DNA from: a virus | Reading direction: 5' to 3' (one strand) | DNA: 64,000 nucleotides | Virus record (IMG/VR): IMGVR_UViG_3300022680_000058 | Coordinates: 32,001-96,000 of that record | In this document: piece by piece, positions 13,771-31,900 of the stretch | Numbering within the stretch: the stretch's first letter is position 1 | Layout: every line of letters begins with the position of its first letter | The notes under the pieces: model-generated | Told to the model about the DNA's origin: nothing | Database searches by the model: none | What the model saw: only the letters and a program-made list of their open reading frames with translations | Made by a program: the position numbers and the translations under genes

Positions 13771-14135
13771 TTCTGGCCAACCGGAACCATGGCGTGCGGA
13801 GACTTCGGGCGAAGCATCTCCACATGCTCATCGCACGCCCCGACCATCCCCCCATCCTTCGCTTCGACGAGGTTGGTCGAATCCTTCCCACACCTGAAAC
13901 ACAAAGAGGCAATTGATTGCCTGCTCAATGGACCTCTATATGATGGGAACGACATACCACTGAGAGGACCACCACACTCCCCGTCGCCCAGTGCATCCCT
14001 ACACGAAGCCGAGTTCTCGCCTGTTGGCGCCATCCTCTCACAGCACGAGCACACGAATGAGTAACCCTGCTTCATGAACCTTTCCGTCTGGATCATACTC
14101 CTACTCCCTCCTCTACAACATACTCCGACCACCAC
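13767..14135 (-). CDS. Cys-rich zinc-binding protein
   Basis: CSCC, C..CGGP, CFRC, C..H; start probably MIQTER. Confidence 0.6.
   Translation of the reverse strand: MVVGVCCRGGSRSMIQTERFMKQGYSFVCSCCERMAPTGENSASCRDALGDGECGGPLSGMSFPSYRGPLSRQSIASLCFRCGKDSTNLVEAKDGGMVGACDEHVEMLRPKSPHAMVPVGQK
13906..13923. repeat. Conserved palindrome, copy 2
   Basis: GAGGCAATTGATTGCCTG inside CDS 13767..14135. Confidence 0.85.
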
Positions 14136-14538
14136 CTGAAACCACTGGCCACTTCCCTCCCTGGTATGGGTTCGGCTTCAAAACGTTCCTGACATACAAG
14201 TCCTTCACCCGATCGAGCCGAGACTTCTCCATGTCAGGGGGTGGGACGACCCACACAAGATACTTTTCCGGGTCCACATCCACTTCGAGAGTCGTCCCCG
14301 ACGAAACGTCTCGAACCCGAACAACACCAATGGCAGGATCAACCTGAGTGATTCGACCATGCTTGATGATGTTCTTCCCCTTCTTTGACCTCACAGTGAC
14401 CAACTGCCCAGCCATCAGGTTTACCCGCTCTGCCGCCTCCTCCAGCCTCGCAGAGTTTTCCACGATGTCAGAGACCTCGGATTCCTGTAAGGCTACAATC
14501 GCCTCTCTGAGGACCGCATTGATGCGCTGAACATCCAT
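14113..14538 (-). CDS. Leader-family protein (putative internal head cargo), SH3-like body
   Basis: Leader MDVQRINAVLREAIVALQESE..LEEA. Confidence 0.7.
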   Translation of the reverse strand: MDVQRINAVLREAIVALQESEVSDIVENSARLEEAAERVNLMAGQLVTVRSKKGKNIIKHGRITQVDPAIGVVRVRDVSSGTTLEVDVDPEKYLVWVVPPPDMEKSRLDRVKDLYVRNVLKPNPYQGGKWPVVSGGGRSML

Positions 14539-15170
14539 CAGACCGGAACTCCCTCGTAGCCAATGACACCCTTGATGTCCATGACCATCTCTCCGACCTT
14601 ATCGACCTGTGATTGGGCAAATGTTCTGGCGTCACCCTTCGATGATGTGAAGAAGATTCCGCGAGACCCCCATCCGCGTCTCACTGTCTTGACATAGACA
14701 GCACTTTCCCGCTCCTTTGACACCTTGATCAGAAATCTCTTCTTTCCACCCTTGCTGGCGCCCCCACCCTGAGCTTCGAGTTCTGCCAAAGTTTCACGAC
14801 CGAGCTGTGTAATGGACCACTTCTCAATCTCGGAGCCATCATCGTCACCCTTGTAGACCTCCATCACAATGAGGCCAAGATCCTCCATCTTGTAGAGGGT
14901 TGGAGTGAACATCCCCGTGATTGCTTTCGTGCCCATCGGGGTCGTGTACCACTTCCAGTAGTACCCAGTCCCAGGGTGCCTGGTGTAGAGGGTCCCATGG
15001 TCAGCAAGGTTTCTGAGCGTCTGCACAGCCTTTGGGGCGAGCCTTGGGAGCTTCTTCCCCTTCCGCCCTTTACCCTTGCTCGACAACTGTTTTGGCGTCG
15101 GAATTTCGTATCCACCGAGCTTCGTCTCACTAATTGCCGCATGAAGTTGTGCTGAAAGTTTAGGCATCAT
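14538..15170 (-). CDS. Leader-family protein with winged-helix-like body
   Basis: MPKLSAQLHAAISE-TKLGGYEIPTP-KQLSSKGKGRKGKK; TLYKMEDLGLI..WSITQLG. Confidence 0.7.
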   Translation of the reverse strand: MMPKLSAQLHAAISETKLGGYEIPTPKQLSSKGKGRKGKKLPRLAPKAVQTLRNLADHGTLYTRHPGTGYYWKWYTTPMGTKAITGMFTPTLYKMEDLGLIVMEVYKGDDDGSEIEKWSITQLGRETLAELEAQGGGASKGGKKRFLIKVSKERESAVYVKTVRRGWGSRGIFFTSSKGDARTFAQSQVDKVGEMVMDIKGVIGYEGVPV

Positions 15171-15739
15171 CAAATCCTGTCGTGTTCCGTCTTTCGGAAC
15201 GGCACGAACTTCGACCTAAGCTTGACCTCGATCTTGAACTGAACGAAGGTTGATGTCGTGAAGACATTTCCATCCCTGGTAGCCTTCACTACATCCCACT
15301 GACTGAACTGAGACGAGTTTCCGAATGGAACCTCTGACCAAAATTCGATAATGTCGCCCTTCTTCGGATACGGGGCGCTCCTGTCCTCGAACTCTTTTCT
15401 TGAAATCCAGATGACAGCCTCAGACTCCGTTCTCGCACCCTGCTCACTTGCTTCCACAGTGACATTGTCCGACTGTGGATAGTCAATCGCCGCATAGAGC
15501 TCGAAAGGCCCGTTGTACGACCAATCCTTCCCCTCATGAGAGGGCTCTCCATAAACAGGATCTCGATTCTTAGCTCTACGAAGCTGATAGAGCTTCACAG
15601 GCTCTCCAGCGAGCCTGGCAGGCTCTGTAGCAACGGAGTCCCACAACGCTTGTTCCGTGCCACAATCATCACAATCGCTGCCCGGAAAGATGCGTCTCGT
15701 GGGCTCGCAGTCGTCGCTACAGAACCCCATCACCACCAC
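15170..15739 (-). CDS. Neck protein, T4 gp14-like
   Basis: GEPVKLY..DPVYGE..VIWISRKEFE..PKKGDIIEF. Confidence 0.7.
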   Translation of the reverse strand: MVVMGFCSDDCEPTRRIFPGSDCDDCGTEQALWDSVATEPARLAGEPVKLYQLRRAKNRDPVYGEPSHEGKDWSYNGPFELYAAIDYPQSDNVTVEASEQGARTESEAVIWISRKEFEDRSAPYPKKGDIIEFWSEVPFGNSSQFSQWDVVKATRDGNVFTTSTFVQFKIEVKLRSKFVPFRKTEHDRI

Positions 15740-16314
15740 CCCTGATATTTCGCCGGTGGCCTCTTCTGAGCATGTCCAGTAACAGACCTGGCGATATTTC
15801 CAAGCTTCTTGGCATAGTTCGTGATTTTGCTGGCGAGCGTCTTGATCCCTCCCTCATCATCAATCGAGACATTCTTCCCGATCGTCATGAGCTCTGGGTA
15901 CTCATCAACCCACTGGTCCACAACCATCTGAGCATCTTTCTTCCGGTCAAAGAATGTCCCCTCATACCCGCCAAAAGCCATGCTCATCCCAGTTGTGGCA
16001 TGAGAAATAACCCACGAAGTTCCTTTATGGCTCTTGTGAACAGCCCAGACACCTTTGACATACGCCTTGATTGGCTGCTTCGTGTGCCCCTCATCATGGA
16101 ACATGTTCGGGACACGGATCTTGATGGTTTTCCCCGACCATCCAGTCGGCCCTTTCTTCCCCTTCTTCGGCGACTTCATCCCAAAAGTCCCTGGAGCACG
16201 AACATCATAGCTCGTTACACCAGAGGCTATTGCCTCAGCCATTACGGCGATCTCATCTTCTTGAAATGTTGAAATCGCCGTCACGAGAACAGTGTTGACC
16301 GTGTGAACATCCAT
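15730..16314 (-). CDS. Leader-family protein (putative internal head cargo)
   Basis: MDVHTVNTVLVTAISTFQEDE..MAE-AIASGVTSYDVRAP. Confidence 0.7.
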   Translation of the reverse strand: MDVHTVNTVLVTAISTFQEDEIAVMAEAIASGVTSYDVRAPGTFGMKSPKKGKKGPTGWSGKTIKIRVPNMFHDEGHTKQPIKAYVKGVWAVHKSHKGTSWVISHATTGMSMAFGGYEGTFFDRKKDAQMVVDQWVDEYPELMTIGKNVSIDDEGGIKTLASKITNYAKKLGNIARSVTGHAQKRPPAKYQGWW

Positions 16315-16841
16315 CACATATCTGCCTTGAACGCAAGGTGCGCTTTCAGAGCTTCGAGGATGTCCTTGTAGACGTCTTTCACGGTTCTGCCCGACGTGAT
16401 GATCGATGCCTTACCATGGTTGAGAACGCCGCCGACATCAACAGAGCTCGGGTTGATGAACATGTCAATGTTCTTCTGCCAGCCGACCTTCTTCTCATCG
16501 AAATCGACGAAGACCTGTCGTCTGTCCTTCTTCTTCCCGGTTCCCTTGTAGCCCTGGTAGACCCTCTTGGTTCCTGGGAGGTCTTTCTTGAGCTTCTTGA
16601 GCTGCTTCAAGAGCGCCGTAGAAAACTTGACCCTCTCTTCGAGAGTCCCCCCGCCAGTGATCCCCGCTGGAGAGAACTTCGATGGAGGAGGAGGAGTATA
16701 CTGCTGTCCACGAGGGGACGGAACTCTGTACACCCCGGTGACACCATGAGCCATCGCCGCCTCGTGGAGGTCGTCAACCTCACACTCCTGGAAGAAAACA
16801 ATGGCTTCGACCAGTGTCGTATTGACCGCCTGAATGTCCAC
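16314..16841 (-). CDS. Leader-family protein (putative internal head cargo)
   Basis: MDIQAVNTTLVEAIVFFQECE..LHE-AAMAHGVTGVYRVPSP. Confidence 0.7.
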   Translation of the reverse strand: MDIQAVNTTLVEAIVFFQECEVDDLHEAAMAHGVTGVYRVPSPRGQQYTPPPPSKFSPAGITGGGTLEERVKFSTALLKQLKKLKKDLPGTKRVYQGYKGTGKKKDRRQVFVDFDEKKVGWQKNIDMFINPSSVDVGGVLNHGKASIITSGRTVKDVYKDILEALKAHLAFKADM

Positions 16842-16844
16842 AGC

Positions 16845-17171
16845 TCACCCCTTTTTCTTGGTCCGGTTCTTCATGATGCTGACGCAAACGCCTTCCGGCT
16901 CTTTCGCCTTGGAACACCGTCGGAAAGCATCAACACAGTCTGAGAAGCTATTGAAGTCCTTCCCTTGCTTGTCTCGGTACTTCCGCATGCAGTCAGGTTC
17001 GCTCTTGATGGGACCTGTGGGCCGCTTCCGCTCCTTGCCCTTCTTCCCCCTCTTGGCAAGCGCCGCCGGTGTTGGAGGCGTGTATGCCGCCTCGGAGATC
17101 CCATCGATGTCCGCTTCCTGAAAACCGATGATTGCTTGAAGGAGAACCGAATTGACCTGCCCGATATCCAT
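16845..17171 (-). CDS. Leader-family protein with Cys-rich body
   Basis: MDIGQVNSVLLQAIIGFQEAD..ISE-AAYTPPTP; CMRKYR..FSDCV..C..EPEGVC. Confidence 0.7.
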   Translation of the reverse strand: MDIGQVNSVLLQAIIGFQEADIDGISEAAYTPPTPAALAKRGKKGKERKRPTGPIKSEPDCMRKYRDKQGKDFNSFSDCVDAFRRCSKAKEPEGVCVSIMKNRTKKKG

Positions 17172-17174
17172 GAC

Positions 17175-17768
17175 CTACCTCGCTTCACCAACACCAACGG
17201 ACTCAAAGGCAGGATCGCCCTCCATTTTGTCCGCATGGGGATAATACCTCATGGTGTAAAGCCAGCCCTTCAATGGGGCAAGCCCACCAGTTCCATAATA
17301 CTCTGTCGTGAACCTGCCCTTGAACGCCTTGCCGCCGATCTTTGTCCTGAGTGTTTTTGCGACATCTTTTGCAATCTTTGGAACATCTTTCGACTTGCCA
17401 TCGTCAGCGTCCATGAAGATAGAAACCTGGAATTGCGGTCCAAGCTTCTTCGAGACGTCCTGACCAAAAGTGTGGCCTGTAGCACGGATCGAAATCTTGG
17501 GGTACTTCTGCTTGAACTTTTTGTCCAATTCAGAGGCTATCGCGATGATTCTCGATCCGTAGATTCTCTCGAAGTGTTTAGCAAGGTGCATCTTGCTATA
17601 CCGCTTGAACTCCTCAGGACTCGGCACATGGAATCCAGACCCGTACTTCTCTCCGGTAGCGCTCGTTCTGTACGGCTTCCCGACGATGTACACTGACTCT
17701 TCGAGCTCACTCTCTTGGAAGCCGATGATCGCCTGAAGAAGAACCGAGTTGACTTGCCTGATATCCAC
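17175..17768 (-). CDS. Leader-family protein (putative internal head cargo)
   Basis: GTG start at 17768: MDIRQVNSVLLQAIIGFQESELEE-S..GFHVPSP. Confidence 0.7.
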   Translation of the reverse strand: MDIRQVNSVLLQAIIGFQESELEESVYIVGKPYRTSATGEKYGSGFHVPSPEEFKRYSKMHLAKHFERIYGSRIIAIASELDKKFKQKYPKISIRATGHTFGQDVSKKLGPQFQVSIFMDADDGKSKDVPKIAKDVAKTLRTKIGGKAFKGRFTTEYYGTGGLAPLKGWLYTMRYYPHADKMEGDPAFESVGVGEAR

Positions 17769-17772
17769 GCCC

Positions 17773-19227
17773 TCACCCCTTGCCCAACAATTCAACAATA
17801 TCATGCACAGGGACCCAGCCGGGAGATGTTTTCAGAAGAGGGAGACTCTTGAGCGCCTCTTCTGCTTCGACCTGCTCCGGATCTGACCCAAGTTTCTTGA
17901 GCTCACGAACGACCTCGAATCGCTCTCCATCCTGAGTCACTGTGTGAGCGGACCTCTCGTCAGTGAACTTTCCGTCTTTCCCGTGGTAGGTCTTCGACTC
18001 GCCGAACACCTGTTTCCTAGCCTTGACGAGCTTGATCTTCCTCTGGAACTTCCCCTGAACGTCGTCACCCTCGAAACCAACCTTGTTGAGGTAGATTTCT
18101 GTCGCACGAATCCACTCCCGCTGTCGGTGGGCTTCTTCGTCCCGATCATCCACAGAATGCATGAGAGCGAGACCAGCCATGGCCACCCCGTACCAGAATG
18201 GACTCGATGACCTTAGATGACGAAACGCCGTGTCGTCGTCGATGTCACTCCACGTCCAACCAGTACCACCCTGGTAAGACGTCTTTGCCCTTGTCGTTCG
18301 ACGAACCTTCGCCTTGGCAAAAGCGATATCGAGGAGCTTATCAGCGAGACGCCTCGCAGGATGCCTTGTCATCATCCTCGGGACGAAACGTTTCAACATC
18401 TCAGGATTCGCACGAGATGACATCCTCATGAAGTTCTTCTCGTTCGAAACAGCCTCTCGGTCCTCGGGCACGTCAACCCTCTTGGCCCAATTGACACCCT
18501 TCATGTACTGAGACGTGTCACGCCTGAGGTTTGGCAACGGGACATCAACATCAACCCCAGCGAGCTCAACCCCCATGGTCTTTCTTGGACCCGAGGCCTT
18601 GTCCTTCTTCCCCATCACATCCTTCTCTGGGTTGATGTCCTCTGGGTTCAGGTACTTGCTCCTGAGCTCACGAGCTGTTCTCTGTACGTAGTCCTCACGT
18701 TCGCTCTTCGGCAACGCCCCCTTGAGCGCCGATCCAGCCATCGCCACGCCATACCAGAACGGATCAGTCTTGAGGAGGTCACCAGGAACTACCCCATGGA
18801 ACTGATACCCGCCCCGAGTTGTCCCTACGCGCCTCATCTTATCGGCGACCAGATCCACTGGGTGAGTGATGTTCGCCACGACAGTCCCCTGGTCGAGCAA
18901 GACAGCGATAGACTTCCTGTCCATCTTCTTCGCCCCCTCCAGGCTCTTCGTGATGGACCTGAGCTTCGGGTCCTCGAACTCGGGCAGATCCTTCGTCATG
19001 TTTTTGTTCGCCCAGTTGACACCCTTAACAAACTGAGACTGGCGTCCAGGGGATGTGTTCGGGACCTTGACGTCAGCCGTGACGCCCCCATAACTGATGA
19101 TCGGCTTCTGCCGATAGAGAGGCGTCGGGTCCTTCTCCACTTTCGGCGGCGCCGGAACATCAAAAGACGTCACTCCCTTGGCGACTGCTTCATCAACGCG
19201 GCTGAAAAGATTGCCCCACCTACTCAT
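17773..19227 (-). CDS. Leader-family protein with two copies of an unrecognised domain
   Basis: Start MSRWGNLFSRVDE-AVAKGVTSFDVPAP after a GAGGT RBS; KGVNWA..HP..ADK..PFWYGVAMAG occurs twice. Confidence 0.75.
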   Translation of the reverse strand: MSRWGNLFSRVDEAVAKGVTSFDVPAPPKVEKDPTPLYRQKPIISYGGVTADVKVPNTSPGRQSQFVKGVNWANKNMTKDLPEFEDPKLRSITKSLEGAKKMDRKSIAVLLDQGTVVANITHPVDLVADKMRRVGTTRGGYQFHGVVPGDLLKTDPFWYGVAMAGSALKGALPKSEREDYVQRTARELRSKYLNPEDINPEKDVMGKKDKASGPRKTMGVELAGVDVDVPLPNLRRDTSQYMKGVNWAKRVDVPEDREAVSNEKNFMRMSSRANPEMLKRFVPRMMTRHPARRLADKLLDIAFAKAKVRRTTRAKTSYQGGTGWTWSDIDDDTAFRHLRSSSPFWYGVAMAGLALMHSVDDRDEEAHRQREWIRATEIYLNKVGFEGDDVQGKFQRKIKLVKARKQVFGESKTYHGKDGKFTDERSAHTVTQDGERFEVVRELKKLGSDPEQVEAEEALKSLPLLKTSPGWVPVHDIVELLGKG

Positions 19228-19235
19228 GACCAACC

Positions 19236-19640
19236 TCACACAGTTTTCTCGATGTCCCTGAACAGATCCTTGAATCGCTTGTACTTCGCCGGGGCTTCTT
19301 TTTCCATGGCGTGCTTCATCGTCCGGCGAGCTCCCTTCTGAGTCTGCCTGATGCTCGACACCTGACCGCCCTTCTTGTAGGGGGGCTTCAGGTATCCATT
19401 GCGAGTCATCGCCCAACGACAGATGTTCCACGCCGCACGAACGCTCTTCTTCTTCCCACCATTCTTGCCATCTTTCACAGCGACGATACAGTGAGCAAGC
19501 TGAGCTGGAACCCTGTCGACCTTCGCCGCCGCCTTCGAGCCGCCTGGCTTCTGTTGCTGGCGAGGAGGTTTCCTCCTCAGACCTCCACGGGGAGCTTGGC
19601 GCCTCTCAAGAATCATCTCGACTGGTACCCACAGACTCAC
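19236..19640 (-). CDS. Basic small protein (HC..AWNIC motif), putative internal head protein
   Basis: Very K/R-rich; leader MSLWVPVEMILE. Confidence 0.65.
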   Translation of the reverse strand: MSLWVPVEMILERRQAPRGGLRRKPPRQQQKPGGSKAAAKVDRVPAQLAHCIVAVKDGKNGGKKKSVRAAWNICRWAMTRNGYLKPPYKKGGQVSSIRQTQKGARRTMKHAMEKEAPAKYKRFKDLFRDIEKTV

Positions 19641-19643
19641 AAC

Positions 19644-20228
19644 TCACCCCACACACAGATCGTTGCAGATGTTCGAGAAGTATTTCTTCTTCAAGGCTAC
19701 AACCTCTCGGTCGACGTAGTCATCCTTCTGCCTCATCGTGAGGGAGCGAATGAGCGCCTCCCCGACCATCCCGACAGCGTACCAATAAGGATCGGTTTCC
19801 AGCATCTGGTCTGGTACCGTTCCGTCGTACCTGTAACCGGCTTTCTGTGAAGCCATAGCGATCAGCTTCTTCGCCACCCGCTCAACAGGATGCCTCATCA
19901 CAGACTGATACCGACCAGACGAAAATCCGGAACGGACAGCTCCAATGTTCCGGCCAGACTGCTTCTCGATCTCACGAACAACGAACGCCAAACCCTCATC
20001 AGGAGGTGGCGGGTCCTTCAAGACAGTATCCTTCACCCACTCGACGCCGAGCCTGAACTTCTCGTTCGTCCACGCAGACCCCGCTGGCGTCTTCACAGTA
20101 GCGCTCACAGGCCCGTAAGAAACTCTGAGGGGGACTCCACCCCTGGTCACCTTCCTTTGCATTTGAGACGGCGTAGGCACCTTGTATGAGCCAGCCATCG
20201 CCTCCAGCAACCGAGCGGAGAGCTGCAT
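19644..20228 (-). CDS. Leader-family protein with one copy of the 17773 domain
   Basis: MQLSARLLE-AMAGSYKVPTP; GVEWV..RHPVERVAKK..DPYWYAVGM. Confidence 0.75.
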   Translation of the reverse strand: MQLSARLLEAMAGSYKVPTPSQMQRKVTRGGVPLRVSYGPVSATVKTPAGSAWTNEKFRLGVEWVKDTVLKDPPPPDEGLAFVVREIEKQSGRNIGAVRSGFSSGRYQSVMRHPVERVAKKLIAMASQKAGYRYDGTVPDQMLETDPYWYAVGMVGEALIRSLTMRQKDDYVDREVVALKKKYFSNICNDLCVG

Positions 20229-20231
20229 GTA

Positions 20232-21011
20232 TCACCCCACGATGAAAGGAACAGGATCGCTGAGACTGATCAGCTCCTGATCAAGTGAGAGTTTCTCGTC
20301 CTGAGCTTCGGCGAGTAGTGTCTCACCGTCCATAGATTTCGCACCACCTGCCGACGGGAATTCAGTGTACTTCCCACGGACTCGACCGAGGCGTTCTTTG
20401 AGACACGCCCTGGCGTACCTGAGGATCATGTCCCTGTCACGGAACCGAAGCTTCCTGAAATCATTCACAGGGGTCGTATCAGGCGCCACAGGGTCCTCGG
20501 TAACCAAGGTGGTGCTGGCGTATCTGGCGACCACTGTTCCAGTCGAATGGTTGACCGGATAGATGGACAGCAAGTTGTCGACTCGGCTGTACTCCCACGA
20601 TGGCTCGGAGCCGACAACCCGCTTCGCTGTCTCGGAGTGGGCGATCATCTGGTTGAGGGTGCCGTAAAACGAGCCCCCAGGGATTCCTGTGAGGCTCGCA
20701 TAGGCCACGGGGAGCATGTCCACGTCAATGAACGCGAAGGGGTTGATCGAGGCAATGACATCGAGCTGGACACCAGGGAACCAAACGGACAAAACCTCGT
20801 CACAGTCATCAGGCATCGAATAAGTGCTGATTCCAGACGAGACATTCTGAACGGCATGTCGTTTGATCCCCTTTTTCCCGATCCACCACCTCAAGGCATC
20901 ATCGAAGGAATCACTGCAATGCTCGTCAGTGACTTCGAGGACCACAACGCCACAGCCCAGCGAGCGCTTGACCCAGCCCTCAGCCTCTTCCCTGTTCATT
21001 GGGTCCGTCAT
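20232..21011 (-). CDS. Neck protein, T4 gp13-like
   Basis: WVKRSLG..VLEVTDE..DDAL..RYARACLKERLGRVRGKY..GG..MDGETLLAEAQDE..FIVG. Confidence 0.85.
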   Translation of the reverse strand: MTDPMNREEAEGWVKRSLGCGVVVLEVTDEHCSDSFDDALRWWIGKKGIKRHAVQNVSSGISTYSMPDDCDEVLSVWFPGVQLDVIASINPFAFIDVDMLPVAYASLTGIPGGSFYGTLNQMIAHSETAKRVVGSEPSWEYSRVDNLLSIYPVNHSTGTVVARYASTTLVTEDPVAPDTTPVNDFRKLRFRDRDMILRYARACLKERLGRVRGKYTEFPSAGGAKSMDGETLLAEAQDEKLSLDQELISLSDPVPFIVG

Positions 21012-21725: not shown

Positions 21726-23219
21726 TCAGAGTCCGCCAGTGATTGCGACGCGCCCGAACCATTCGCTCCTCAAGAGCTTGGTTGCATATCGGGTCCTCAT
21801 CCCCTTCTTGTTCGTCTGATCCTCAGGATCTTGGAACGTCTGGGTCATTTGAAGGGGGACGTATGGGCTGAAGACGAAGCCCGCATCCAGATAGCTGCGA
21901 CCACGGAGGCCAAGCATGATGTTGTTCCAGGAGAAGAAGGGGTCTTGGTATCCCCACCACTTGTTGGAGAGGGGACCCATCTTGAGGATGCCCTGGTGCG
22001 AGGTCATGGGACCGTAGCTCGGGGGCACCTGGATGCCATCGAAGGGGCCTTGAACGCCAGCACCGGAGGAGATCCATCCGGGGCGATAGTCGCCATGGGT
22101 CTGGGTCTGAATGAGCTTGGCCGAGACGTCGGGACTGGTGACGTACCAGTTTGCCGGGGCTCGGAGGGTTTGCTTGTGGATCTCGAAGCTGACGGCGCTC
22201 ATCCGAGTCATGACAGCTCGGATGTGGTCGACCTCGGAGAGACCAGCAGGAACGGTGAAGTCGAAGGTATCGGTGATACCCGCCGACGCCGCATAGAGCT
22301 GGTTGATGATGTCGCGGTCGATTTCGAGAGCGACTTCCTGGGCGATGCCGCCGACGAGCTCTGTTTCGGCGTCGAGCCCGTGGAACGCTCGGAGGTCATC
22401 CTGGGCCTCAGAGCTCCAGCGAGCCTTGAGCTTGCGGGTTTGAGCCTGGATGGGCAGGAAACTGATGTCGATGTAGACATCCGGGATGTTCCGGTTGCCT
22501 TCCATGTCGTACCAGTAGGTCACCCGAACGATGTTGCCATTGGTGGTGTTGACGCCGAACTGGAAGTTCGTGATCTGGCCATTGGCATAGTTGATGGTAC
22601 CAGAGGTCGCACCAGTGAACCCACCAGATCCATTGTCGACGTGACTTTGGACGATGATGTCCGCAGTCGCGTTGTACTCCTCGACCGTCACCGAGTAGCC
22701 CAGGTCGGCGTCGAGCGGACGAACTGGGTTGTACTGAAGGATGGTCGCACCAGAACCACCAGCCGGTGACCACTCCTGAGCAGCAGTGATATCAGCGAGC
22801 TTCTCATACTCGATCTTCTCGGAGGAGTAGAGCGAGTCGAAGTTCTGGATGAGGTTCGAGCCAGCCGTGGTCCCTCCCTTGGAGCGGCCATGCTTGAACT
22901 CGAAGTAGAAGACCGCACCGACGGGAGAAGTCATCGGCTGGACCGAGACGATCTCGTTGGCGATCAGGTTGGGGAACACCCTCCGGAGAACCGGAAAGAT
23001 GTACTTCGTGTACGATCCCGCGTTGGTCGAGAGCGTGTCCTCTTCGAGCTGCCGACGCATGTCACGGAACTGGTTCTCCATGAGCATGGCCATGCACTTG
23101 CGGGTGTAGTCTTCCTGGATGCCGCCGAGGTAGCGACCCCATTTTTTGACGAGCAGAGAAGTATATCGCTGGTCGCGAATCGTCTCACTCCCTGCCTCGT
23201 TCAGATTTTGTCTACTCAT
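21726..23219 (-). CDS. Major capsid protein, T4 gp23-like
   Basis: LMENQ..FPVLRRVFPNLIANEIVSVQPMTSPVG..RKLKARWS.EAQDDLRAFHGLDAETEL..EIDRDII..PYVPL..GMRTRYA. Confidence 0.97.
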   Translation of the reverse strand: MSRQNLNEAGSETIRDQRYTSLLVKKWGRYLGGIQEDYTRKCMAMLMENQFRDMRRQLEEDTLSTNAGSYTKYIFPVLRRVFPNLIANEIVSVQPMTSPVGAVFYFEFKHGRSKGGTTAGSNLIQNFDSLYSSEKIEYEKLADITAAQEWSPAGGSGATILQYNPVRPLDADLGYSVTVEEYNATADIIVQSHVDNGSGGFTGATSGTINYANGQITNFQFGVNTTNGNIVRVTYWYDMEGNRNIPDVYIDISFLPIQAQTRKLKARWSSEAQDDLRAFHGLDAETELVGGIAQEVALEIDRDIINQLYAASAGITDTFDFTVPAGLSEVDHIRAVMTRMSAVSFEIHKQTLRAPANWYVTSPDVSAKLIQTQTHGDYRPGWISSGAGVQGPFDGIQVPPSYGPMTSHQGILKMGPLSNKWWGYQDPFFSWNNIMLGLRGRSYLDAGFVFSPYVPLQMTQTFQDPEDQTNKKGMRTRYATKLLRSEWFGRVAITGGL

Positions 23220-23254: not shown

Positions 23255-24895
23255 TCAGCGCTGGTTCTCTGGAATACCAGAGAGTTCATCGAAGGCATCA
23301 TCCGTGAGTCCGAAGCCTTCGACCAACGCGCCCGATTGGCCCTCACCGTTTTTGTCTCTCCAGGGCTCCGACGTCCCGTCCCTGAACGGGTTCTCTTCCT
23401 CTGACAGAGCCCTTCTGTTCCCCCGACTCACACGAGAACGGATTCGTTCTGCCTCGTCCTGGTCGAGAGCTCTCGTTCGTCGAGCACCAAAGGATCTGAT
23501 GACCCTTTCGGCGCCATCGATATCTGTGATCCCCTCACAGAGATCCACGACCTCTTCACCTTGCGGGTGTGCCGTCTGGACCCCTCTGAGGTACGACTCG
23601 ATCTGAATCGTCTCTGCAATCTGGATGGCCTCCTTCAGCTTCGACTTGGCGTGGTCCGCCTCCTCAGTCGCTTTCGAGAGCTTTCCCTCCAGATTTGCGA
23701 TCCTCTCACGGAGCTTGGCTTCGATGTCATCAGGTTCGTCATCCTCAGTCTTTGCCGAAGAGAGTTCGCCCTGAATAGCCTCAATCCGCTCGTCAATCTC
23801 GCTGACGTTTTTGAACGACTTCACATCTCCCACGAGCTTGACGATGGTGTCCCTTGAAGGGTCTCCACTCAACTTCCGCTCCATGTGGAGTCTGTATGTC
23901 GCCTCTTTCGCCACCTCAGCCATTTCGGCGTACTTCTTTTCCGCCGCCTCGACCTCCAACTCCTTGTCAGAGACCCTCTTTTCGAGCTCAGAAACCTTGC
24001 CCGACTGGTCATCCGCTCCATCACCTGTCGGAGTCGACGACGCGAAACTCGTGACGAGCCCAGCAATCTGCTCCAACACCTGGATGGCGCCACCGACCTC
24101 CGGGTCGTTCAGTAGTTCCTGTCGAACCCTCGTCTCGGCAGCCTCATCGAGCTTTTCGATCTTGCGAAGGAGTTCGTTCGAGAGCTGCTCCCTGACCTCC
24201 TCCTCGATCAGAGCACGCTCGGGAGACTCGACGTCTTCCCTGATCGGCTCCCCATCACCATCTGCCAGCGGACAGCCACAGCCCTCTCTGAGAGCCGCTG
24301 CTGCGAATTCATCCGCGAGACCTGGGTAGTCACGCTTGAAGGACTCCAAGGTGAAGTCTCCGTCACCTGGGACCTTCTCGATCTCTTCCTGGAAGACCTT
24401 GGGGTATGCAGTCTTTGTCGCTGGGTCTGCCACGAAGTCAAAAGTGTCCAGTCTGAAATCTTCCTGAACCTCCATAATCCCATTCGGGAGCGCCTTCGTG
24501 GAACCGAAACCTCGGCTACTGACACCGACCTTGGCCCCCGCCTCGGCCAGGGTCTTCATGATGCGACCCATAGGAGTGTCGAGGAGCTCAGCCTCCCCAA
24601 TGACTGAGTTCCCCTCAACACGAAGATTCGTGAGCAAGTGACTGACACGTTGAAGCTTGGTTCTTCCGTCAGCCGGATGATCGAGCTCTCCGAACGCCCT
24701 GCGATCTCTCATCGCCTCAGACAGTCGCCCGATCTCACGCCGCCAAAGATGCTCTCTGTAGAGACGCTTGTTCTCGGTTGGCTTATCAGACCTGGCGAAT
24801 TCGCCCTTCATGACGAGCTTGTGAGGCTTTGATGAGTCTGCCGACTCCTGCAAAGCACACGAAAACGTCATGGTGTCGATGAGCAGCTCAGCCAT
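23255..24895 (-). CDS. Prohead protease (T4 gp21-like) fused to a scaffold-like coiled coil
   Basis: NKRLY..AFGELDHP..VSH..GVSSRGFGS..FDFVADP, followed by an acidic coiled-coil region rich in LxE sites. Confidence 0.92.
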   Translation of the reverse strand: MAELLIDTMTFSCALQESADSSKPHKLVMKGEFARSDKPTENKRLYREHLWRREIGRLSEAMRDRRAFGELDHPADGRTKLQRVSHLLTNLRVEGNSVIGEAELLDTPMGRIMKTLAEAGAKVGVSSRGFGSTKALPNGIMEVQEDFRLDTFDFVADPATKTAYPKVFQEEIEKVPGDGDFTLESFKRDYPGLADEFAAAALREGCGCPLADGDGEPIREDVESPERALIEEEVREQLSNELLRKIEKLDEAAETRVRQELLNDPEVGGAIQVLEQIAGLVTSFASSTPTGDGADDQSGKVSELEKRVSDKELEVEAAEKKYAEMAEVAKEATYRLHMERKLSGDPSRDTIVKLVGDVKSFKNVSEIDERIEAIQGELSSAKTEDDEPDDIEAKLRERIANLEGKLSKATEEADHAKSKLKEAIQIAETIQIESYLRGVQTAHPQGEEVVDLCEGITDIDGAERVIRSFGARRTRALDQDEAERIRSRVSRGNRRALSEEENPFRDGTSEPWRDKNGEGQSGALVEGFGLTDDAFDELSGIPENQR

Positions 24896-24903
24896 TTCAA
24901 CTC

Positions 24904-25122
24904 CTACCGGGACCTGATTTCTCCAGAACGATACTGGCTCCTAGCCAGTAGGTCACCGAGACGCTTCTTGGGTCTTTTCCGCTTCGGGACAATTTTCTTC
25001 TTCCCCTTAGCCTCGAACCCAATCCTGTCTCTGACCGTCCCTCCAAGTCCAAGGATGTCCCGTCGGCGACTCCGATGTTTCAGCTTGTTGGCTTCCAAGA
25101 GCCACCGAACGGGAATCCACAC
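24904..25122 (-). CDS. Small basic protein, putative internal head protein
   Basis: Leader MWIPVRWLLE followed by a K/R-rich body. Confidence 0.55.
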   Translation of the reverse strand: MWIPVRWLLEANKLKHRSRRRDILGLGGTVRDRIGFEAKGKKKIVPKRKRPKKRLGDLLARSQYRSGEIRSR

Positions 25123-25130
25123 CTCACGCC

Positions 25131-26171
25131 CTACTCGCCGTCGTCGTCGAAGAAATTGATCCCGGAGAAGTCTTCGTCATCTCCGTCGTCGATATCCTCG
25201 TCCTCATCGATCTGGGTGTCGTCGTCGATGTCCTCATCCTCATCGAGGAATTCATCATCTTCGTCGTCATCCACATCTTCGAGAAGACCGTTCTCGATAC
25301 CCATCCCGATCGACTCGTGAAGACTGGGTTGCCCCAAATCCTCGTGAGCCGCCATGGCCTTGCTGACACCTTCGAGGAGCCCATTGAGCTTCTCTTCGAT
25401 GGACTCGCTGAGCTCCCCACCGTTGGCTTCGATCTCCTCGGAGATGGTGGCGCCGGTGTCGCTCATCGTGTAGAGCATGTCGGCGATGCTCTGATCACCG
25501 ATGGCCTCGAAACACTCGCCAAGGAGGTGAGCCAGATACCCGGCATTGAGAGCAGCATCCTCATACTCACTCACATCGCCCGTGTTGGTGCTGGTGCTCT
25601 CCAAATCTTCCTTGAGCTGAGACAGCCGATCGCTCGCCTGGATGTTGACACTCTCCTGACGGACGATGAAACCCTTCTTGGTCTTGCCCTTCCGCATCTT
25701 GCGGCGCTTGGCGATCTTGCTCTTGAACCGCTTGCGGTAGAGTCGAGAGGCAGCCTTGAGAGCTCCCCTCTTCTTTCGACGCGCAGCCTTCTCCTTCCGG
25801 AGTTGCTGCTTCGACACCTTGACCATCTTCCCGGAGGCGTCCATCCGATAGCCCTTCTTGCGACGCTTCAGGGCTTCGTCCATGGTCTCGGGCTCTCCGT
25901 CGATGTCCTCGTCATCGTCGTCCACTTCCTCGTAGACGTCGCTGGGAGCGGAGTCGGAGCCGACCTCTTGATAGATGTCACCACACCCACAATCCTCTTG
26001 GAGCGGGTCTTCTCGAACACCCTCGCCGCCGAGAGGAGCGGTGGACCACTCTTCCACGAGCTTGCAGTTGCGGTCCATGTCACCGATGATTTTGTTCGGG
26101 TCGAGACCGAGGCTCTCGATGTCCTCTTCCAACGGTCGGACTGTTCTGTCTTCGCCGTACATTACCTTCAA
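25131..26171 (-). CDS. Putative prohead core protein (acidic, with a basic patch)
   Basis: Lies between portal and protease, as T4 gp67/gp68 do; many LxE/IxE sites; KAARRKKRG..KRRKMRK patch. Confidence 0.65.
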   Translation of the reverse strand: MKVMYGEDRTVRPLEEDIESLGLDPNKIIGDMDRNCKLVEEWSTAPLGGEGVREDPLQEDCGCGDIYQEVGSDSAPSDVYEEVDDDDEDIDGEPETMDEALKRRKKGYRMDASGKMVKVSKQQLRKEKAARRKKRGALKAASRLYRKRFKSKIAKRRKMRKGKTKKGFIVRQESVNIQASDRLSQLKEDLESTSTNTGDVSEYEDAALNAGYLAHLLGECFEAIGDQSIADMLYTMSDTGATISEEIEANGGELSESIEEKLNGLLEGVSKAMAAHEDLGQPSLHESIGMGIENGLLEDVDDDEDDEFLDEDEDIDDDTQIDEDEDIDDGDDEDFSGINFFDDDGE

Positions 26172-26180
26172 CCTCCCTGC

Positions 26181-27128
26181 CTACGCTTGAGGTGTTGAAC
26201 TCAAAAAATGGCTGACGAATTTCTCAGAAAACGCCGCCGCCAGATTCATCTCTCTCAACCTCGAAGCCACACCATCATGAACCCGTCCAAGGCTCATGAC
26301 ATCCCCGCCGTCAGCGACAGCAATCGCACTCTCGACGATTCCAATGGTATCTTCCAGATTCTCGCTGAACTCATGGACGAACTCACCAAAGTCTTCGCCA
26401 AGCAACCCTTCCTCACCGGAAGTCATGTTCTCGTCAAACCCAGACCGCATGACTGATTCTACATCGACATGCATTCGCCTGAGCTCTGAAAGGACGTCAT
26501 CGAGTGAAACCTGGATAGAGTCCCTGATTCGTTGGTCCGAACGGTCCACAGCGGACTCGAAAAGATCGTTGAACTTCGGCTTCGGGAGAGCCCTGTTGGC
26601 GTCCGAACCAACGAACTTTGCCATCGACTCTTCATTCTCCCGAACCGCCTCGATCCAGTCGTGGTCATCACCCATCGCGATCAAGTCATCCTCGACACCC
26701 TCAGCGGTGAACTTCACGCCAGACCTTGCCATCGTGTAAAGAGACTCGATACGGGCGTCCGCCTCATCATCGTTCCCATCCAGGATAGCATCCACGACGA
26801 GGAGTGACTCTACCTTCGCATCGCCACTCAACTCAGAAGCTTCTTTGACCGGGACCTGCACCTGTTCGACAGTCCCGAGCTCCAAGTCACCCGTCTCCTC
26901 ATTCCGAGAAAGCTCGACCTTGAAAAACTCTCCACTCTCGTTGACCACGATCGCGTGCTCAGAGAATGTCCCGATGACACGAATCTCGTCGTCACTGTCG
27001 CCGCCGAAAAGGTCAAGGTTGGAAGACACAGCCTCGTCAACCTCGTTCCTCACAACCTCGAAACTCCCATCGAGGAGTTTCGCCAGTGCTTCGCCGTCAA
27101 CCAATCTCTGTGTAGCCATGTTTCCCAA
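26181..27128 (-). CDS. Putative prohead core / head assembly protein
   Basis: Acidic 315 aa ORF downstream of the portal gene. Confidence 0.55.
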   Translation of the reverse strand: MGNMATQRLVDGEALAKLLDGSFEVVRNEVDEAVSSNLDLFGGDSDDEIRVIGTFSEHAIVVNESGEFFKVELSRNEETGDLELGTVEQVQVPVKEASELSGDAKVESLLVVDAILDGNDDEADARIESLYTMARSGVKFTAEGVEDDLIAMGDDHDWIEAVRENEESMAKFVGSDANRALPKPKFNDLFESAVDRSDQRIRDSIQVSLDDVLSELRRMHVDVESVMRSGFDENMTSGEEGLLGEDFGEFVHEFSENLEDTIGIVESAIAVADGGDVMSLGRVHDGVASRLREMNLAAAFSEKFVSHFLSSTPQA

Positions 27129-27192: not shown

Positions 27193-28983
27193 TCACACAG
27201 CGCCCTGGTCGCGCATCATAGACCTCAATTCATGCATCATTGGGGCAACCTCCATAAACCTCTTCCTGAATCCGGCTTGTTCTTTGAGCACCTTGTCGAG
27301 CTTGTCCTTCCACCGATATTCATCACGTCTGGAGCCATGGTCGAAGTTACGCCGCCAGTCATTCCTCGGAACAGCCTTGATCAACTTCGACAACCTCATC
27401 TCCATCTGCTGCATTTCTGTGAGTTCAGGACTCCCGGCTGAGAGCTCGTCATCGGACAATGACTGAAGAAGCTTTTGCGCCTGAGCATCAATGGCAGCGT
27501 TCGCCAGTGTCTCCTGTCGCTTCTCATCCATGACCTGAAGTGCCTCATCCTCTGAGAACCTAAACAGATGTACGAGAAGCCACTTCGCGCTGACAAACTC
27601 ACCCATACGGGACGCAAGGTCCGCCACAGTGTTCATGACCTCCATCCTGGCGAGTTCCAGAATAGACGATGGGACCGCCATCTTGACCTGGTAGTCGGCC
27701 CTCTCCGGGTCCTTGTTCGTCGCGATGAGATGCACCCGACAAACCTTCCGGTAGCCTCCCCTGATGACCCTCTGAATCCTCATAACAGAGCGAGCAAACC
27801 GAATGTCCTGTGTCGAGAGCTGCCCCTGAACAGCCTCGCCACCATACCCCATATAAATTTGTGGGATCTTGAGAGCAGCTACCAGCTTGTCCCTGTGGTA
27901 GTTGAGGCTCTCAATCTCGGTGTAGTCCGGCCCCTGAATGACATCAATCTCTGTCGTTCTCTTCCCGTCACGAACCCCAATGAAAAAATCTTCGTCATGG
28001 GCCAACGGGTTGTTTCTCATGTCGAGCTGGCCAGAGGAGTTCACAAACTTCTTTCTGGCAAACTGATTCTTCACTCGGTTGACATGAGCTAACCCACGCT
28101 CAGCATCGAGCCCGCCGATATCAACGTAGAATGCGTATCGAGCCGGGGCACGTTCGAGCTTGTAAATCAGGAGCGCATCCTCCAAAAGAGAGAGCCTTTT
28201 CCACACCCACCGTGCAGGGTCAATGACAGCAGAACCATACACACTGTTTGGATGCTTCCCCCTCAACCTCCAATGAACGACCTCCCAATCCTCGAAAACA
28301 GTGATGCCCTGGGAGCTCGTTCTACCGTCACTCAAGAAACTTTTCTGAAGAGCAGGAGATGGACCTCCGCTCCTCTCGGCAGCCAGGGCGTAAAAATCCT
28401 CCATTGTGAGGTTGAAACCCCCACTCATGTCCTGGACGAACCCGAGCAGCAGTCCACGCCTGCTCTCCACGCGGCGCATCGTTGGAGGTGGAAGATAGTT
28501 GATCCCAACAACACCCTCATCCGCAACCAATATCTCACCGAAGCTATCGCCGTACTTACAGAGAGTCCTCGACGCCGCCCAAATGTCATCCTCGATTCCG
28601 AGGTTTTTGTGGAGCATGTCGTTGAGGTCTTCGGCAACGGCCTTGTCTTTCGACTCGACCCAGATCGCCTCTTCACGATCAAGATTCGGTGTACAGGTGT
28701 CGTCTGCATAGAGATCCAGCGCCACCTGAATCTCAGGGTACTGATCCATCTCTTCGTAATCGGTCTGAGCCGCCTGAAGTTGCTGGTCTACCCTGAGGGT
28801 CTCTGCGAGTTCATTGTATCCATAATTGCTTGCCTGAGTGAACGGAAGCCCCGCCTTCTCTACAGATGGGATGCCGCCCCTTCTAAGGTCTTGTGCTGAC
28901 TGTTCTGACGACCGAGCAAAGAAACTTCTGACAGCCTGGCCTGCACTTTTGACGAACCCCTCGAAGAGCTTTTTCTCTGCCAC
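27193..28983 (-). CDS. Portal protein, T4 gp20-like
   Basis: YEEMDQYPEI..ALDLYADD..YGSAVIDPAR..LLEDALLIYKLERAPARYAFYVDIG..EDFFI..ALKIP. Confidence 0.95.
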   Translation of the reverse strand: MAEKKLFEGFVKSAGQAVRSFFARSSEQSAQDLRRGGIPSVEKAGLPFTQASNYGYNELAETLRVDQQLQAAQTDYEEMDQYPEIQVALDLYADDTCTPNLDREEAIWVESKDKAVAEDLNDMLHKNLGIEDDIWAASRTLCKYGDSFGEILVADEGVVGINYLPPPTMRRVESRRGLLLGFVQDMSGGFNLTMEDFYALAAERSGGPSPALQKSFLSDGRTSSQGITVFEDWEVVHWRLRGKHPNSVYGSAVIDPARWVWKRLSLLEDALLIYKLERAPARYAFYVDIGGLDAERGLAHVNRVKNQFARKKFVNSSGQLDMRNNPLAHDEDFFIGVRDGKRTTEIDVIQGPDYTEIESLNYHRDKLVAALKIPQIYMGYGGEAVQGQLSTQDIRFARSVMRIQRVIRGGYRKVCRVHLIATNKDPERADYQVKMAVPSSILELARMEVMNTVADLASRMGEFVSAKWLLVHLFRFSEDEALQVMDEKRQETLANAAIDAQAQKLLQSLSDDELSAGSPELTEMQQMEMRLSKLIKAVPRNDWRRNFDHGSRRDEYRWKDKLDKVLKEQAGFRKRFMEVAPMMHELRSMMRDQGAV

Positions 28984-28994
28984 GACTCCACCAC

Positions 28995-31900
28995 CTAACT
29001 TCTGAGAAACGGCAACGATCCGCCTGGGGCCTTCTTCTGGGGTCCGCTCTTCTTGCGGTCTCCATGGTCATCCTTCTTCACGAGAATCATACCGCCAGTC
29101 ACCCAGGAATCATCCTCTTTGTTCATATCGGGCGACTCTCTGGAACTCGACACCATGTCCACAGGGCGCCCAGGAGCCTTCTTACTCAGAGAATACACGA
29201 CACCAGCGATCGAGTCAGCCACGTCCTTTGACCCTGGTGTCCCATCCGGGTTTCGCTTTGGGTGGTCAATCTTGACCTTCCCGCCCCGCTTCGGAACTCG
29301 CTGTAGATATCTGAACTCTTGCAAGGCGATAGGGTTCGGCGCCATCCGGAAACGACCTTCATAGATGGCTGCCTTCAATGTGTCGTATGGCTCGGTTGTC
29401 CTGTCAATCGAAACGACTTCAGCCTCGATCCCATGCTTGTTGAATTGCTGGATCGTATCAGCACTCTGGAACTGGTCGAGAGAGCTGTAGGAAACCATGA
29501 ATCCATGACCCATAAATTGATAAACGATCCCACGCAGATCAGCCAACATGATCTCGTCACCTGGCGGTGGGATAACACGAAGGACAAGATCTGCTTCCAT
29601 GCGAGGGGCCAGCTCGTTGTACTCCTCGCCGTAAGCATCCTTCCGAACAACCTCTGTCCATCCAGCAATATGACCTATCGTGAGTCCCGCAGAGTCCCCC
29701 GTAAGCGCCGGGTCGATGTGGACGTATCGAACCTCCCCAGGATGCCTCTTCGGGCGCCACGCTTCCTCGTGGACCCCACCAGGGAGCCGTCGCACGAACG
29801 GGTTACAAATCCGGTTCCATTCAATCTTCAACGGAGACCCAGCGACCCACTCAACCACAGGCCCATCACCCTCAAGACCGGCCACTGGGTTCTGTAGTGT
29901 CTCATCCTGACAGTTGTAGACCATCTCAGTTCGGCTCATGTACTGAGATATGACGTCAGTAGCCACACCAGCAACGTCTCTCAAGGCACTATCGATATCC
30001 GCCTCAAATTCACCTCGATAATCCTCTGGAACATCGACGATTTGAAGCCCGAGCTCTCGATACCGTGCCTCATCTTCCTCGTCTCCAGGGCCAAGGATTC
30101 GAGAAGAAATCCGCTCATTACCAACAACAACCTTGAAAAACTTCCCGCTGAATCGCTCCTTGGGGTGGACCTCCCAGGTTGCATACTCCCGGATAAACGT
30201 CATGGGGTCTTCAGATTCTTTAGCCTGGTCAATCCTCTTCTCGATGAACGCGTTGGGGCGCTCCTTCGATGACGCCACAATCAGCACACCTGGGAGCCGA
30301 CCAACCCTCTGGAACCTGGACTTCATTCGCCGAATGATCGACTTGTAGATTTTCTCTCCGACATCGATGAGCACCTCTCGCCCAAGGCGATCAACCTCCT
30401 TGGCCTCACCCATAAAGCTCGACTCATCGATAAACCCAGAGAACACATTGAGGCCGATGATTGCAGACGAACCAGTCGAGCCAGCCACGACCTGAATATT
30501 GTTCGGGAACCTGATTTCGAGCTGCGACGGCGCCTCTTTGGATGGAAAGTGCTCCTGAAAGTATCTTGAGTGACGAATCTTTCCGATCAACTCGTTGATA
30601 ACGACACGCTTGGCCACCTTCTCCGTGACACTCAACATCGCCACGTAGATATTAGACCCAAGGTCAATCCCATACGCCCGTTGAGGATTCCTGAGGCATG
30701 ACATCTGATAAATGGCGTAAGCCATCGCAGTTGTTGAGAAAAAGCTATTGTGAACCACGACGCCATTGACAACAGCGTTACCTGTCGCCGGAACACTCAA
30801 GTCGTAAACATCACGAACACCCCTTGGCTCAACCGACTCAACCCGCTCCCACACGATGTCATCGCTCATGTCAGCGAATCTCCGGAACCTCCCGTGATAC
30901 CCGACCGAATCACACAACCGAACAAACTTTTGACGCCCCATATAGGAGCCCTTACACAACCCAGCAAGCTTGGCCCACTTCTTCTTGTTGTGCAGTCCAG
31001 TCTCTCTTCGGATCTCTTTCAGCTCTTTTGTCGTAATCGGGACAACATCCCAATTCGAGTTCGGCTTCACACTCCTCGCCTGCTTCAGGAGCCGATCACA
31101 CGCCGCCTCTTTCCCCGGTATCTGTCCAACCCTCTCCATGAACAAAATCTGGTTCGGCGCGTCAGCTATCTGAAGCCTCCAGGCATCGAGGTCACCATCC
31201 TGGTTCTTTTTGCGCTTGTAGCTCTTCCGAGCCACCACACCAAAGCGACGGAGGAGATACTGGATGTCATCGATCAACCCCTCAGACGCAAGGCAGATCT
31301 CAATCTTTCGAGGACTCCCCGTGTAGACGTCCCCATCGGTGAACAGCCAACGAAGAAAGAGAGAGAGCTGCTCATCCGACAAACCAAAATACGTATCCGG
31401 TACCCTTTTTACTTTCGACAGGCATCTGATACCAAGAGTGTCAGTCCACTCTGTCAATCCCCTAAGGCTGATCGTAGGCTTCCCATCTGTGGTCGGGCTC
31501 GCCCCATCAAACCCAGGAATCGATCCAGCATGCTTGACGACTTCTGCTCTAAGATTCGGGTCACCTTTGGTGTACGTCGTCCGCGCCCCTGTCATGCTTC
31601 CGTCAGCGATGAGAGCCGCCGAGACGACCACTTCATCGTCTGAGATTTCGAGCTCTCTCTGAGGGGCTGGGACGCGACGAGCTACAGCTACCAAATCACC
31701 CTCTTCAAGAGCAGAGACATGACGATACCCATCCGGGCACAACACCGGGTGATCAAGGCTCGCATCGAGGTGCTGACCTGAGACCAGCTTCATCCTGGCA
31801 CATTCTTTTCGACCAGACTTCCATACCCGATTCGACCTCTCATGGGCAATTGATTGCCCACCAAATGACGGAACTGATGGTGTCTTCCCAACAGCTTGAC

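Follow-up and report, generated by a model that had tools for sequence, protein, structure and literature searches.

The stretch of DNA analysed here, called the window throughout, comprises bases 32001-96000 (64,000 nucleotides) of a 147,979-bp virus record (IMGVR_UViG_3300022680_000058), in which the minus strand carries nearly all genes. Between the adaptor gene of a T4-type head module and the tail sheath gene it holds an array of seven genes whose products share a short motif of the general form [YF]-x-[VI]-P-x-P close behind an N-terminal leader, and the same order is found around one metagenomic relative. The motif recurs behind predicted cut sites, including internal ones, lies in predicted flexible segments, and is kept by purifying selection independently of leader type and cargo body. 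It lies at the heart of a portable N-terminal cassette, roughly 20 residues long, that runs into a Lys/Arg-rich linker, and the cassette can be written as [L/I/M]-x-E / A-x-A-x-G-x-T/G-x-Ar-x-V-P-[S/T/A]-P-x-x-hydrophobic (Ar, aromatic), with the predicted cut between E and A.

Motif genes, leaders and the head module

All seven peptides quoted in a first-pass annotation of this DNA are present as written, at the N-termini of minus-strand genes; the coordinates attached to them proved to be the low ends of those genes and not the motif positions, which are collected in Table 1. The strict pattern proposed there holds in five of the seven, with YDVRAP and YTPPTP each off by one residue. Its placing of the motif right behind a predicted cut site is supported: the motif follows [L/I/M/V]-x-E by 0-22 residues, and such sites are of the kind expected to be cut by the T4 gp21-like (S77) head protease that this phage encodes. 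The Lys-rich patch was half right, as the quoted basic runs are there but form no discrete patch, the basic character spanning the whole mature protein. Two gene starts were also revised, the 484-residue protein most likely starting at Met69 of a 552-residue open reading frame and the 197-residue protein at a GTG within a frame of 209 residues; both new starts are preceded by a GGTGAG-like ribosome site.

Enrichment was measured in the first 100 residues of 201 predicted proteins using the loose core [YF]-x-[VI]-[PLR]-[STA]-P and 1000 per-protein shuffles. The core was observed 12 times against 0.25 expected (maximum of 3 in the 1000 shuffles), and every one of the 12 copies lies no more than 27 residues behind an h-x-E site (h, hydrophobic). 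Across the proteome the motif is not equally frequent in non-virion proteins, since strict matches outside leader N-termini number two and look like chance. Chance as the origin of the pattern as a whole is ruled out by the shuffles together with a reversed-pattern DNA control (8 coding-strand matches versus 2-3).

A simple whole-genome gene call added six copies outside the window, one of which consists of two tandem 20-residue repeats of the motif unit (Table 1). Among the 13 paralogous copies, third-codon identity at identical motif residues is 28%, about random, and the motif serine is encoded by both AGT and TCN codons; it is therefore the peptide, and not the DNA, that is conserved. Recent duplication or gene conversion was considered as a source of the likeness and is ruled out by the random synonymous positions.

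The leaders are of at least three types, all ending in [L/I/M/V]-x-E, and are common to proteins with unrelated bodies. The suggestion that the motif is selected independently of the leader is supported, as it follows long (M-D-I-x-x-V-N..), short (..L-S-x-x-L-x-E-A) and W-containing leaders, and it was not present in non-leader proteins. The third (W) type precedes the 134-residue basic protein of the window, which has no motif, and in the relative L004 a motif does follow it. Leaders can also be swapped: the long leader of the 141-residue protein is replaced by a short one in a relative, while the two bodies are 44% identical. This 141-residue protein is kept in all relatives, motif-less ones included, and gives a weak VEG-like match (E 0.014); it looks like a small beta-barrel and may be a conserved internal head component. 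The W-[IV]-P-[VL]..[IV]-x-E element forms the N-terminal leader of the 134-residue protein and of a 72-residue basic protein. The element is found as well at the extreme C-terminus of the 484-residue protein and, in L001, where two genes that stand apart in this genome are fused. It could represent a third class of leader or else a propeptide at the C-terminus.

Table 1. Motif-bearing genes, their neighbours and the head genes. Positions are those of the window unless marked as genome positions.
Feature	Coordinates	Strand	Remarks
211-residue cargo gene, short leader (..L-S-x-x-L..I-S-E)	14538..15173	-	YEIPTP at 15093-15110, then K/G/R run
195-residue cargo gene, long MD[IV]xxVN leader, predicted M-A-E/A cut	15730..16317	-	variant YDVRAP at 16192-16209, then SPKK/GKKG run
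175-residue cargo gene, long leader, predicted L-H-E/A cut	16314..16841	-	YRVPSP at 16713-16730
108-residue cargo gene, long leader, predicted I-S-E/A cut	16845..17171	-	variant YTPPTP at 17067-17084, then K/R run
197-residue cargo gene, GTG start, long leader	17175..17768	-	FHVPSP at 17616-17633, 22 residues past L-E-E
484-residue cargo gene, short W-type leader ending V-D-E/A	17773..19227	-	FDVPAP at 19147-19164
194-residue cargo gene, short leader ending L-L-E/A	19644..20228	-	YKVPTP at 20169-20186
141-residue leader-bearing protein without motif	14113..14538	-	
134-residue basic protein, third leader type (M-x-x-W-V-P-V..I-L-E), without motif	19236..19640	-	
W-[IV]-P-[VL]..[IV]-x-E element	17773-17830, 19600-19640, 25090-25122	-	
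Adaptor	20232-21011		part of the T4-type head module
Major capsid protein, T4 gp23 family	21726..23219	-	Pfam Gp23, E 1e-60
Head maturation protease, S77, T4 gp21-like	23255..24895	-	Pfam Peptidase_S77, E 2e-16; phrog_207, E 9e-49
Two very acidic proteins (346 and 315 residues) between portal and protease	25131..27128	-	
Portal protein, T4 gp20 family	27193..28983	-	Pfam Portal_T4, E 9e-57
Extra motif copy beside the tape-measure gene	genome 29899-30708		
Second cluster, four motif copies, genome 104-110 kb	genome 104097-104540, 105864-106988, 106925-108877, 108879-110336		
Extra motif copy, two tandem 20-residue repeats	genome 119481-120149	+	

The bodies behind the cassettes share no common family, and the 13 motif proteins and their neighbours gave no significant match to a PHROG or Pfam family. 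This includes the 211-residue protein, whose mature part has a net charge of +13. The 195-residue protein contains a recurrent 'GVWAVH' domain, for which the protein atlas returned viral hypothetical proteins only. In the 175-residue protein a degenerate second motif copy, YTPPPP, lies at 16683-16700, and in the 108-residue protein the K/R run is followed by a small Cys-rich domain that is conserved in relatives (alignment A6). The 194-residue protein is a paralogue of the 484-residue protein, and a homologue search of 5.8 billion proteins returned only itself. Two motif cargo proteins of the second cluster, of 650 residues (genome 106925-108877; L025:3425-5377, minus strand) and 485 residues (genome 108879-110336; L025:5379-6836, minus strand), carry HExxH followed by an acidic E-E-x-F, which by sequence looks like a zinc metalloprotease signature; neither has a Pfam family. 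The former has an internal segment resembling a short leader at residues 485-500, with no motif behind it, and the latter ends in a leader-like C-terminus (L-S-D-Q-L..R-E-A).

The T4-type set of gp21-like S77 protease, gp20-type portal and gp23-type capsid gene is present and adjoins the cargo array, and the capsid protein is only about 28% identical to those of the closest cultured phages. The protease, which bears an acidic C-terminal extension of 370 residues as judged by composition, is the presumed enzyme for the h-x-E cuts. The 346- and 315-residue proteins are strikingly acidic (D/E against K/R counts of 93 vs 45 and 71 vs 26) and match no family in Pfam or PHROG; they are candidates for scaffold or core proteins, and in the prohead they might attract the basic cargo electrostatically. 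Net charge is -2 to -7 in the leaders and +8 to +23 in 12 of the 13 mature parts, which stand within an acidic proteome and are basic like the T4 internal proteins. Acidic leaders, basic mature parts and very acidic proteins between the portal and capsid genes thus combine into charges that fit the T4 picture.

Three further observations concern these head genes. Right after its own L-E-E, the capsid protein has an invariant N-arm, N-A-G-x-Y-T-K-Y-I-F-P (residues 64-76; window 23000-23030, minus strand), that is faintly like the cargo cassette A-G-S-Y-K-V-P-T-P; this could be coincidence, or the cargo could be mimicking the capsid N-arm. Beside the portal, a 1101-residue protein (window 28995-32300, minus strand) contains an intein splicing domain and a LAGLIDADG endonuclease domain, and is probably a large terminase interrupted by an intein. 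In the relative around P0018, several short open reading frames and an HNH endonuclease gene occupy the place of the capsid gene, which suggests that the latter has been split by a mobile element.

Conservation of the cassette among relatives

Relatives were found in IMG/VR, where 23 contigs encode a capsid protein 63-79% identical to that of this phage, and the motif is found among them. In one relative (L004, with L005 and L019), eight leader genes lie downstream of the capsid gene and at least six of them have the motif. In more distant relatives, the orthologue of the 484-residue protein (P0121) is 37% identical and keeps E-A-V-A-x-G..S-[FY]-D-V. Conservation in orthologues, on which the first-pass annotation had staked its proposal, is clear in an eight-protein family of 25-43% identity, where 12 of the 15 invariant columns fall in the first 43 residues, that is, in leader and motif.

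A profile made of the long leader and the motif was searched against 1.84 billion representative proteins and gave 116 matches, 109 of them N-terminal; 70 of the 109 have the strict motif and about ten a one-residue variant, a share inflated by the presence of the motif in the search profile itself. Two copies, 9-25 residues apart, occur in 14 of the 109. A motif-centred profile (A7) returned nearly only its own training sequences, and none of 50,697 cultured-phage records was matched when leader and motif were searched by tblastn with E values of up to 10 allowed. The motif is so far confined to one uncultured lineage, with about 100 protein clusters.

By residue counts the consensus runs aromatic (0), x, Val (+2), Pro (+3), Ser/Thr/Ala (+4), Pro (+5), x, x, Met/Val/Leu/Phe (+8) and Gly/Ala/His (+9), followed by a Lys/Arg-rich stretch, and many copies share an upstream E-A-x-A-x-G-x-T-S. 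The Glu ahead of the motif is invariant (alignment A2). Substitutions like those of YDVRAP and YTPPTP recur in relatives, where the last Pro is the sole invariant position. Position +4 among the 70 strict copies is Ser in 32, Thr in 19, Ala in 8, Pro in 3 and Gly in 2, and some variants have Ile, Met, Tyr or Trp. The conserved aromatic, Val, two Pro and downstream hydrophobic residue, the tolerant middle and the tandem copies together make this look like a short linear protein-binding motif. Two other identities were considered and rejected: a proline-directed phosphorylation site, because the Ser/Thr at +4 is not invariant, and an SPKK or AT-hook core, because the conserved positions are the aromatic, V, P, P and the hydrophobic residue at +8, while the basic residues vary in position.

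The cassette might be a functionless passenger, a linker inherited with the leader through duplication and recombination. Leader, motif and basic linker do travel together, and leaders have clearly been exchanged between genes. Such an origin is nevertheless very improbable given that the residues persist despite saturated synonymous sites and serine codons are drawn from both families, that the cassette is more conserved than the bodies in orthologues, and that the motif stands behind different leaders and also without any leader.

Two side observations concern post-leader sequences in relatives. The motif-less relatives L014 (14188-14871) and L015 (15047-15706) have another conserved peptide, [S/T]-P-x-Y-R-x-G-Y-[E/D]-R-I-F-G-K-K, behind a short leader and followed by a long basic run, and this may be an alternative post-leader signal. 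In L001 (2076-2336, plus strand), an 86-residue protein has a HicA toxin domain (Pfam E 2e-15) after a 16-residue stretch that opens with an M-R-L-S-type short leader, making it a candidate capsid-packaged RNase toxin.

Proposed role of the motif on the mature protein

The idea that the motif is exposed at the mature N-terminus draws its most telling support from three metagenomic polyproteins. In P0004, P0005 and P0070, a first leader and domain are followed by a repeat of L-x-E/A, motif and basic run at an internal junction, before the next domain, giving each predicted mature fragment its own motif. Part of a precursor that has already been addressed needs no second address, so an own copy makes sense only where the motif works for the mature fragment or for the cut. 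As modelled by AlphaFold2, the internal junction of P0004 falls in a 60-residue stretch with a predicted local distance difference test score (pLDDT) below 50, between two confident domains. In that of P0053 the leader forms two low-confidence helices and the motif is non-helical, of low confidence and unpacked on the body; a short helix begins at its last Pro and the confident body 15 residues on. According to these models the cassette is a flexible appendage.

The same internal copies bear on the idea of a bipartite capsid-targeting signal with the motif as its second half, which would help the precursor to bind scaffold or core before cleavage and have no later role. The motif does adjoin the leader, and the very acidic core proteins would offer the basic run something to bind. 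It is quite unlikely, though, that targeting is the whole role, as the internal copies belong to polyproteins that already have an N-terminal leader and many leader proteins have no motif. In T4 a 10-residue leader alone suffices (PMC9026906).

The main rival is that the motif acts at the cut itself, as a prime-side recognition element (exosite) through which the S77 protease would tell genuine sites from accidental h-x-E. The motif always stands close behind h-x-E, internal polyprotein junctions included, and the distance from Glu to the aromatic residue is fixed within each subtype. An added determinant would moreover be useful to the enzyme, T4 gp21 having strikingly few known ones (PMC9026906). 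Across subtypes, however, that distance is 0, 2, 5 or 8-9 and up to 27, which provides no single binding register, and tandem second copies lie 9-25 residues farther on. Furthermore, an internal copy in P0039 has no Glu ahead of it, motif-less leaders retain the conserved Glu, and the acidic core proteins have many h-x-E with no motif behind. Recognition by the protease is therefore judged unlikely; if the motif did guide the enzyme, it would explain how a protease of three-residue specificity chooses its sites.

A role in the host after ejection appears improbable, whether as a shared handle for tail or envelope passage, through binding of one common host factor or by governing how stable the new N-terminus is. 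In its favour, the motif is retained on the mature protein, and two subtypes are predicted to expose Phe or Arg/Lys as the new N-terminal residue; in bacteria, such residues destabilise a protein when they stand at its N-terminus. Against this, cargo bodies with no relation to one another should have different targets, and the motif is not similar to a known host-factor-binding motif.

The first-pass annotation had proposed a docking or ejection signal, with the basic patch tethering cargo to DNA. The explanation favoured here, with confidence somewhat short of even, is that the motif is a post-cleavage docking or retention signal joined to a basic arm. The cassette would mark the mature start of capsid-internal (packaged) proteins in one uncultured myovirus lineage with a T4-type head. 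An acidic leader, of at least three interchangeable types, would, like the capsid targeting sequence of T4, deliver the precursor to the prohead core, and the gp21-like S77 protease would then cut after Glu, leaving a basic protein whose new, flexible N-terminus opens with the motif. Once the leader is gone, the motif could work as a short linear docking motif. Trimmed cargo would thereby be held or positioned on one common component of the head, for example the inner surface of the shell, the portal or what is left of the core. The basic stretch may bind the very acidic core proteins to begin with and the DNA once it is packaged.

Several findings weigh against the docking or retention reading. 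The motif is optional, being absent from about 29 of the 109 metagenomic leader proteins (within the inflated match set described above) and from at least nine leader proteins of this genome, and with so many leaders lacking it, neither loading nor retention can depend on it as a general rule. A complete relative of 191.6 kb has no motif, the DNA pattern there being at control level only and never in coding context. The motif is also always near a cut site or leader, as a free-standing docking motif need not be. Finally, lysine plus arginine make up 19% of the whole mature protein, and their share behind the motif is only moderately raised (24% vs 17.6% in motif-less leader proteins, p = 0.012).

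A stronger form of docking would be a dedicated second address code, in which the motif docks each mature cargo or polyprotein fragment at a defined site in the capsid interior or portal and the basic arm lies on DNA, so that copy number, position and ejection order are fixed, and which could be carried over to any protein. This is possible but on the unlikely side. Were it true, the packaged proteome of the lineage could be read from sequence (about 13 such proteins here, two of them with HExxH), and those who load phage capsids with foreign proteins would gain a second, post-cleavage module. Even in T4, the way in which internal proteins are retained, arranged and released after leader removal is poorly understood, and a transferable peptide on the mature protein would be a concrete handle, which can be mutated, fused to reporters or used as bait for partners.

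Comparison with known systems

By its head genes, its leaders and the basic charge of the mature proteins, the system belongs with T4-type capsid targeting, and packaging in the head and a cut at the Glu are predicted. In T4, a capsid targeting sequence on IPI, IPII, IPIII and Alt is removed by the prohead protease gp21 at L/I-x-E (PMC9026906, PMC3012670), with cutting after Glu and a leader of ten residues being enough for targeting (PMC9026906). This phage shares the gp20, gp21 and gp23 families, and here too acidic N-terminal leaders ending in [L/I/M]-x-E stand on unrelated small basic proteins, not all of which have their genes near those of the head. The leaders differ from that of T4 in being longer (up to 27 residues) and of several types. 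Moreover, no conserved motif has been described behind the T4 cut site, whereas here the leader is followed by a motif of about 20 residues and a basic linker that can be duplicated and used at internal junctions.

In the giant phages phiKZ, 201phi2-1 and SPN3US, head and ejection proteins have propeptides and multiple cleavage sites (PMC9026906, PMC10052503, PMC5694885). The likeness lies in a gp21-like protease that cuts after Glu and in many packaged proteins with N-terminal propeptides, several cut sites each. Their cleavage motif is instead S/A/G-x-E, and the accessible passages report no shared post-cleavage motif. A literature search for such a motif on packaged phage proteins likewise found none described in the portions of the sources available.

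SPKK and AT-hook peptides resemble the sequence that follows the motif, in which K, R, G and P abound and which in a few copies is literally S-P-K-K. The conserved aromatic, Val and hydrophobic positions are however foreign to those peptides, and most copies have neither SPKK nor R-G-R-P. Encapsulin cargo-loading peptides are similar in concept, since a short, flexible, conserved peptide on unrelated cargo docks inside an HK97-fold shell. The encapsulin peptide consensus is rich in small and aliphatic residues. It is thus a different consensus, and those peptides are usually C-terminal and involve no proteolysis. Lastly, the DarA-Hdf internal proteins of phage P1 are fixed to the inner capsid surface and touch the DNA (PMC12810830). 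They provide a precedent for packaged proteins that are docked inside the capsid, contact DNA and leave at ejection, although in P1 it is folded proteins at penton-hexon junctions that make the contact, and not a short shared motif.

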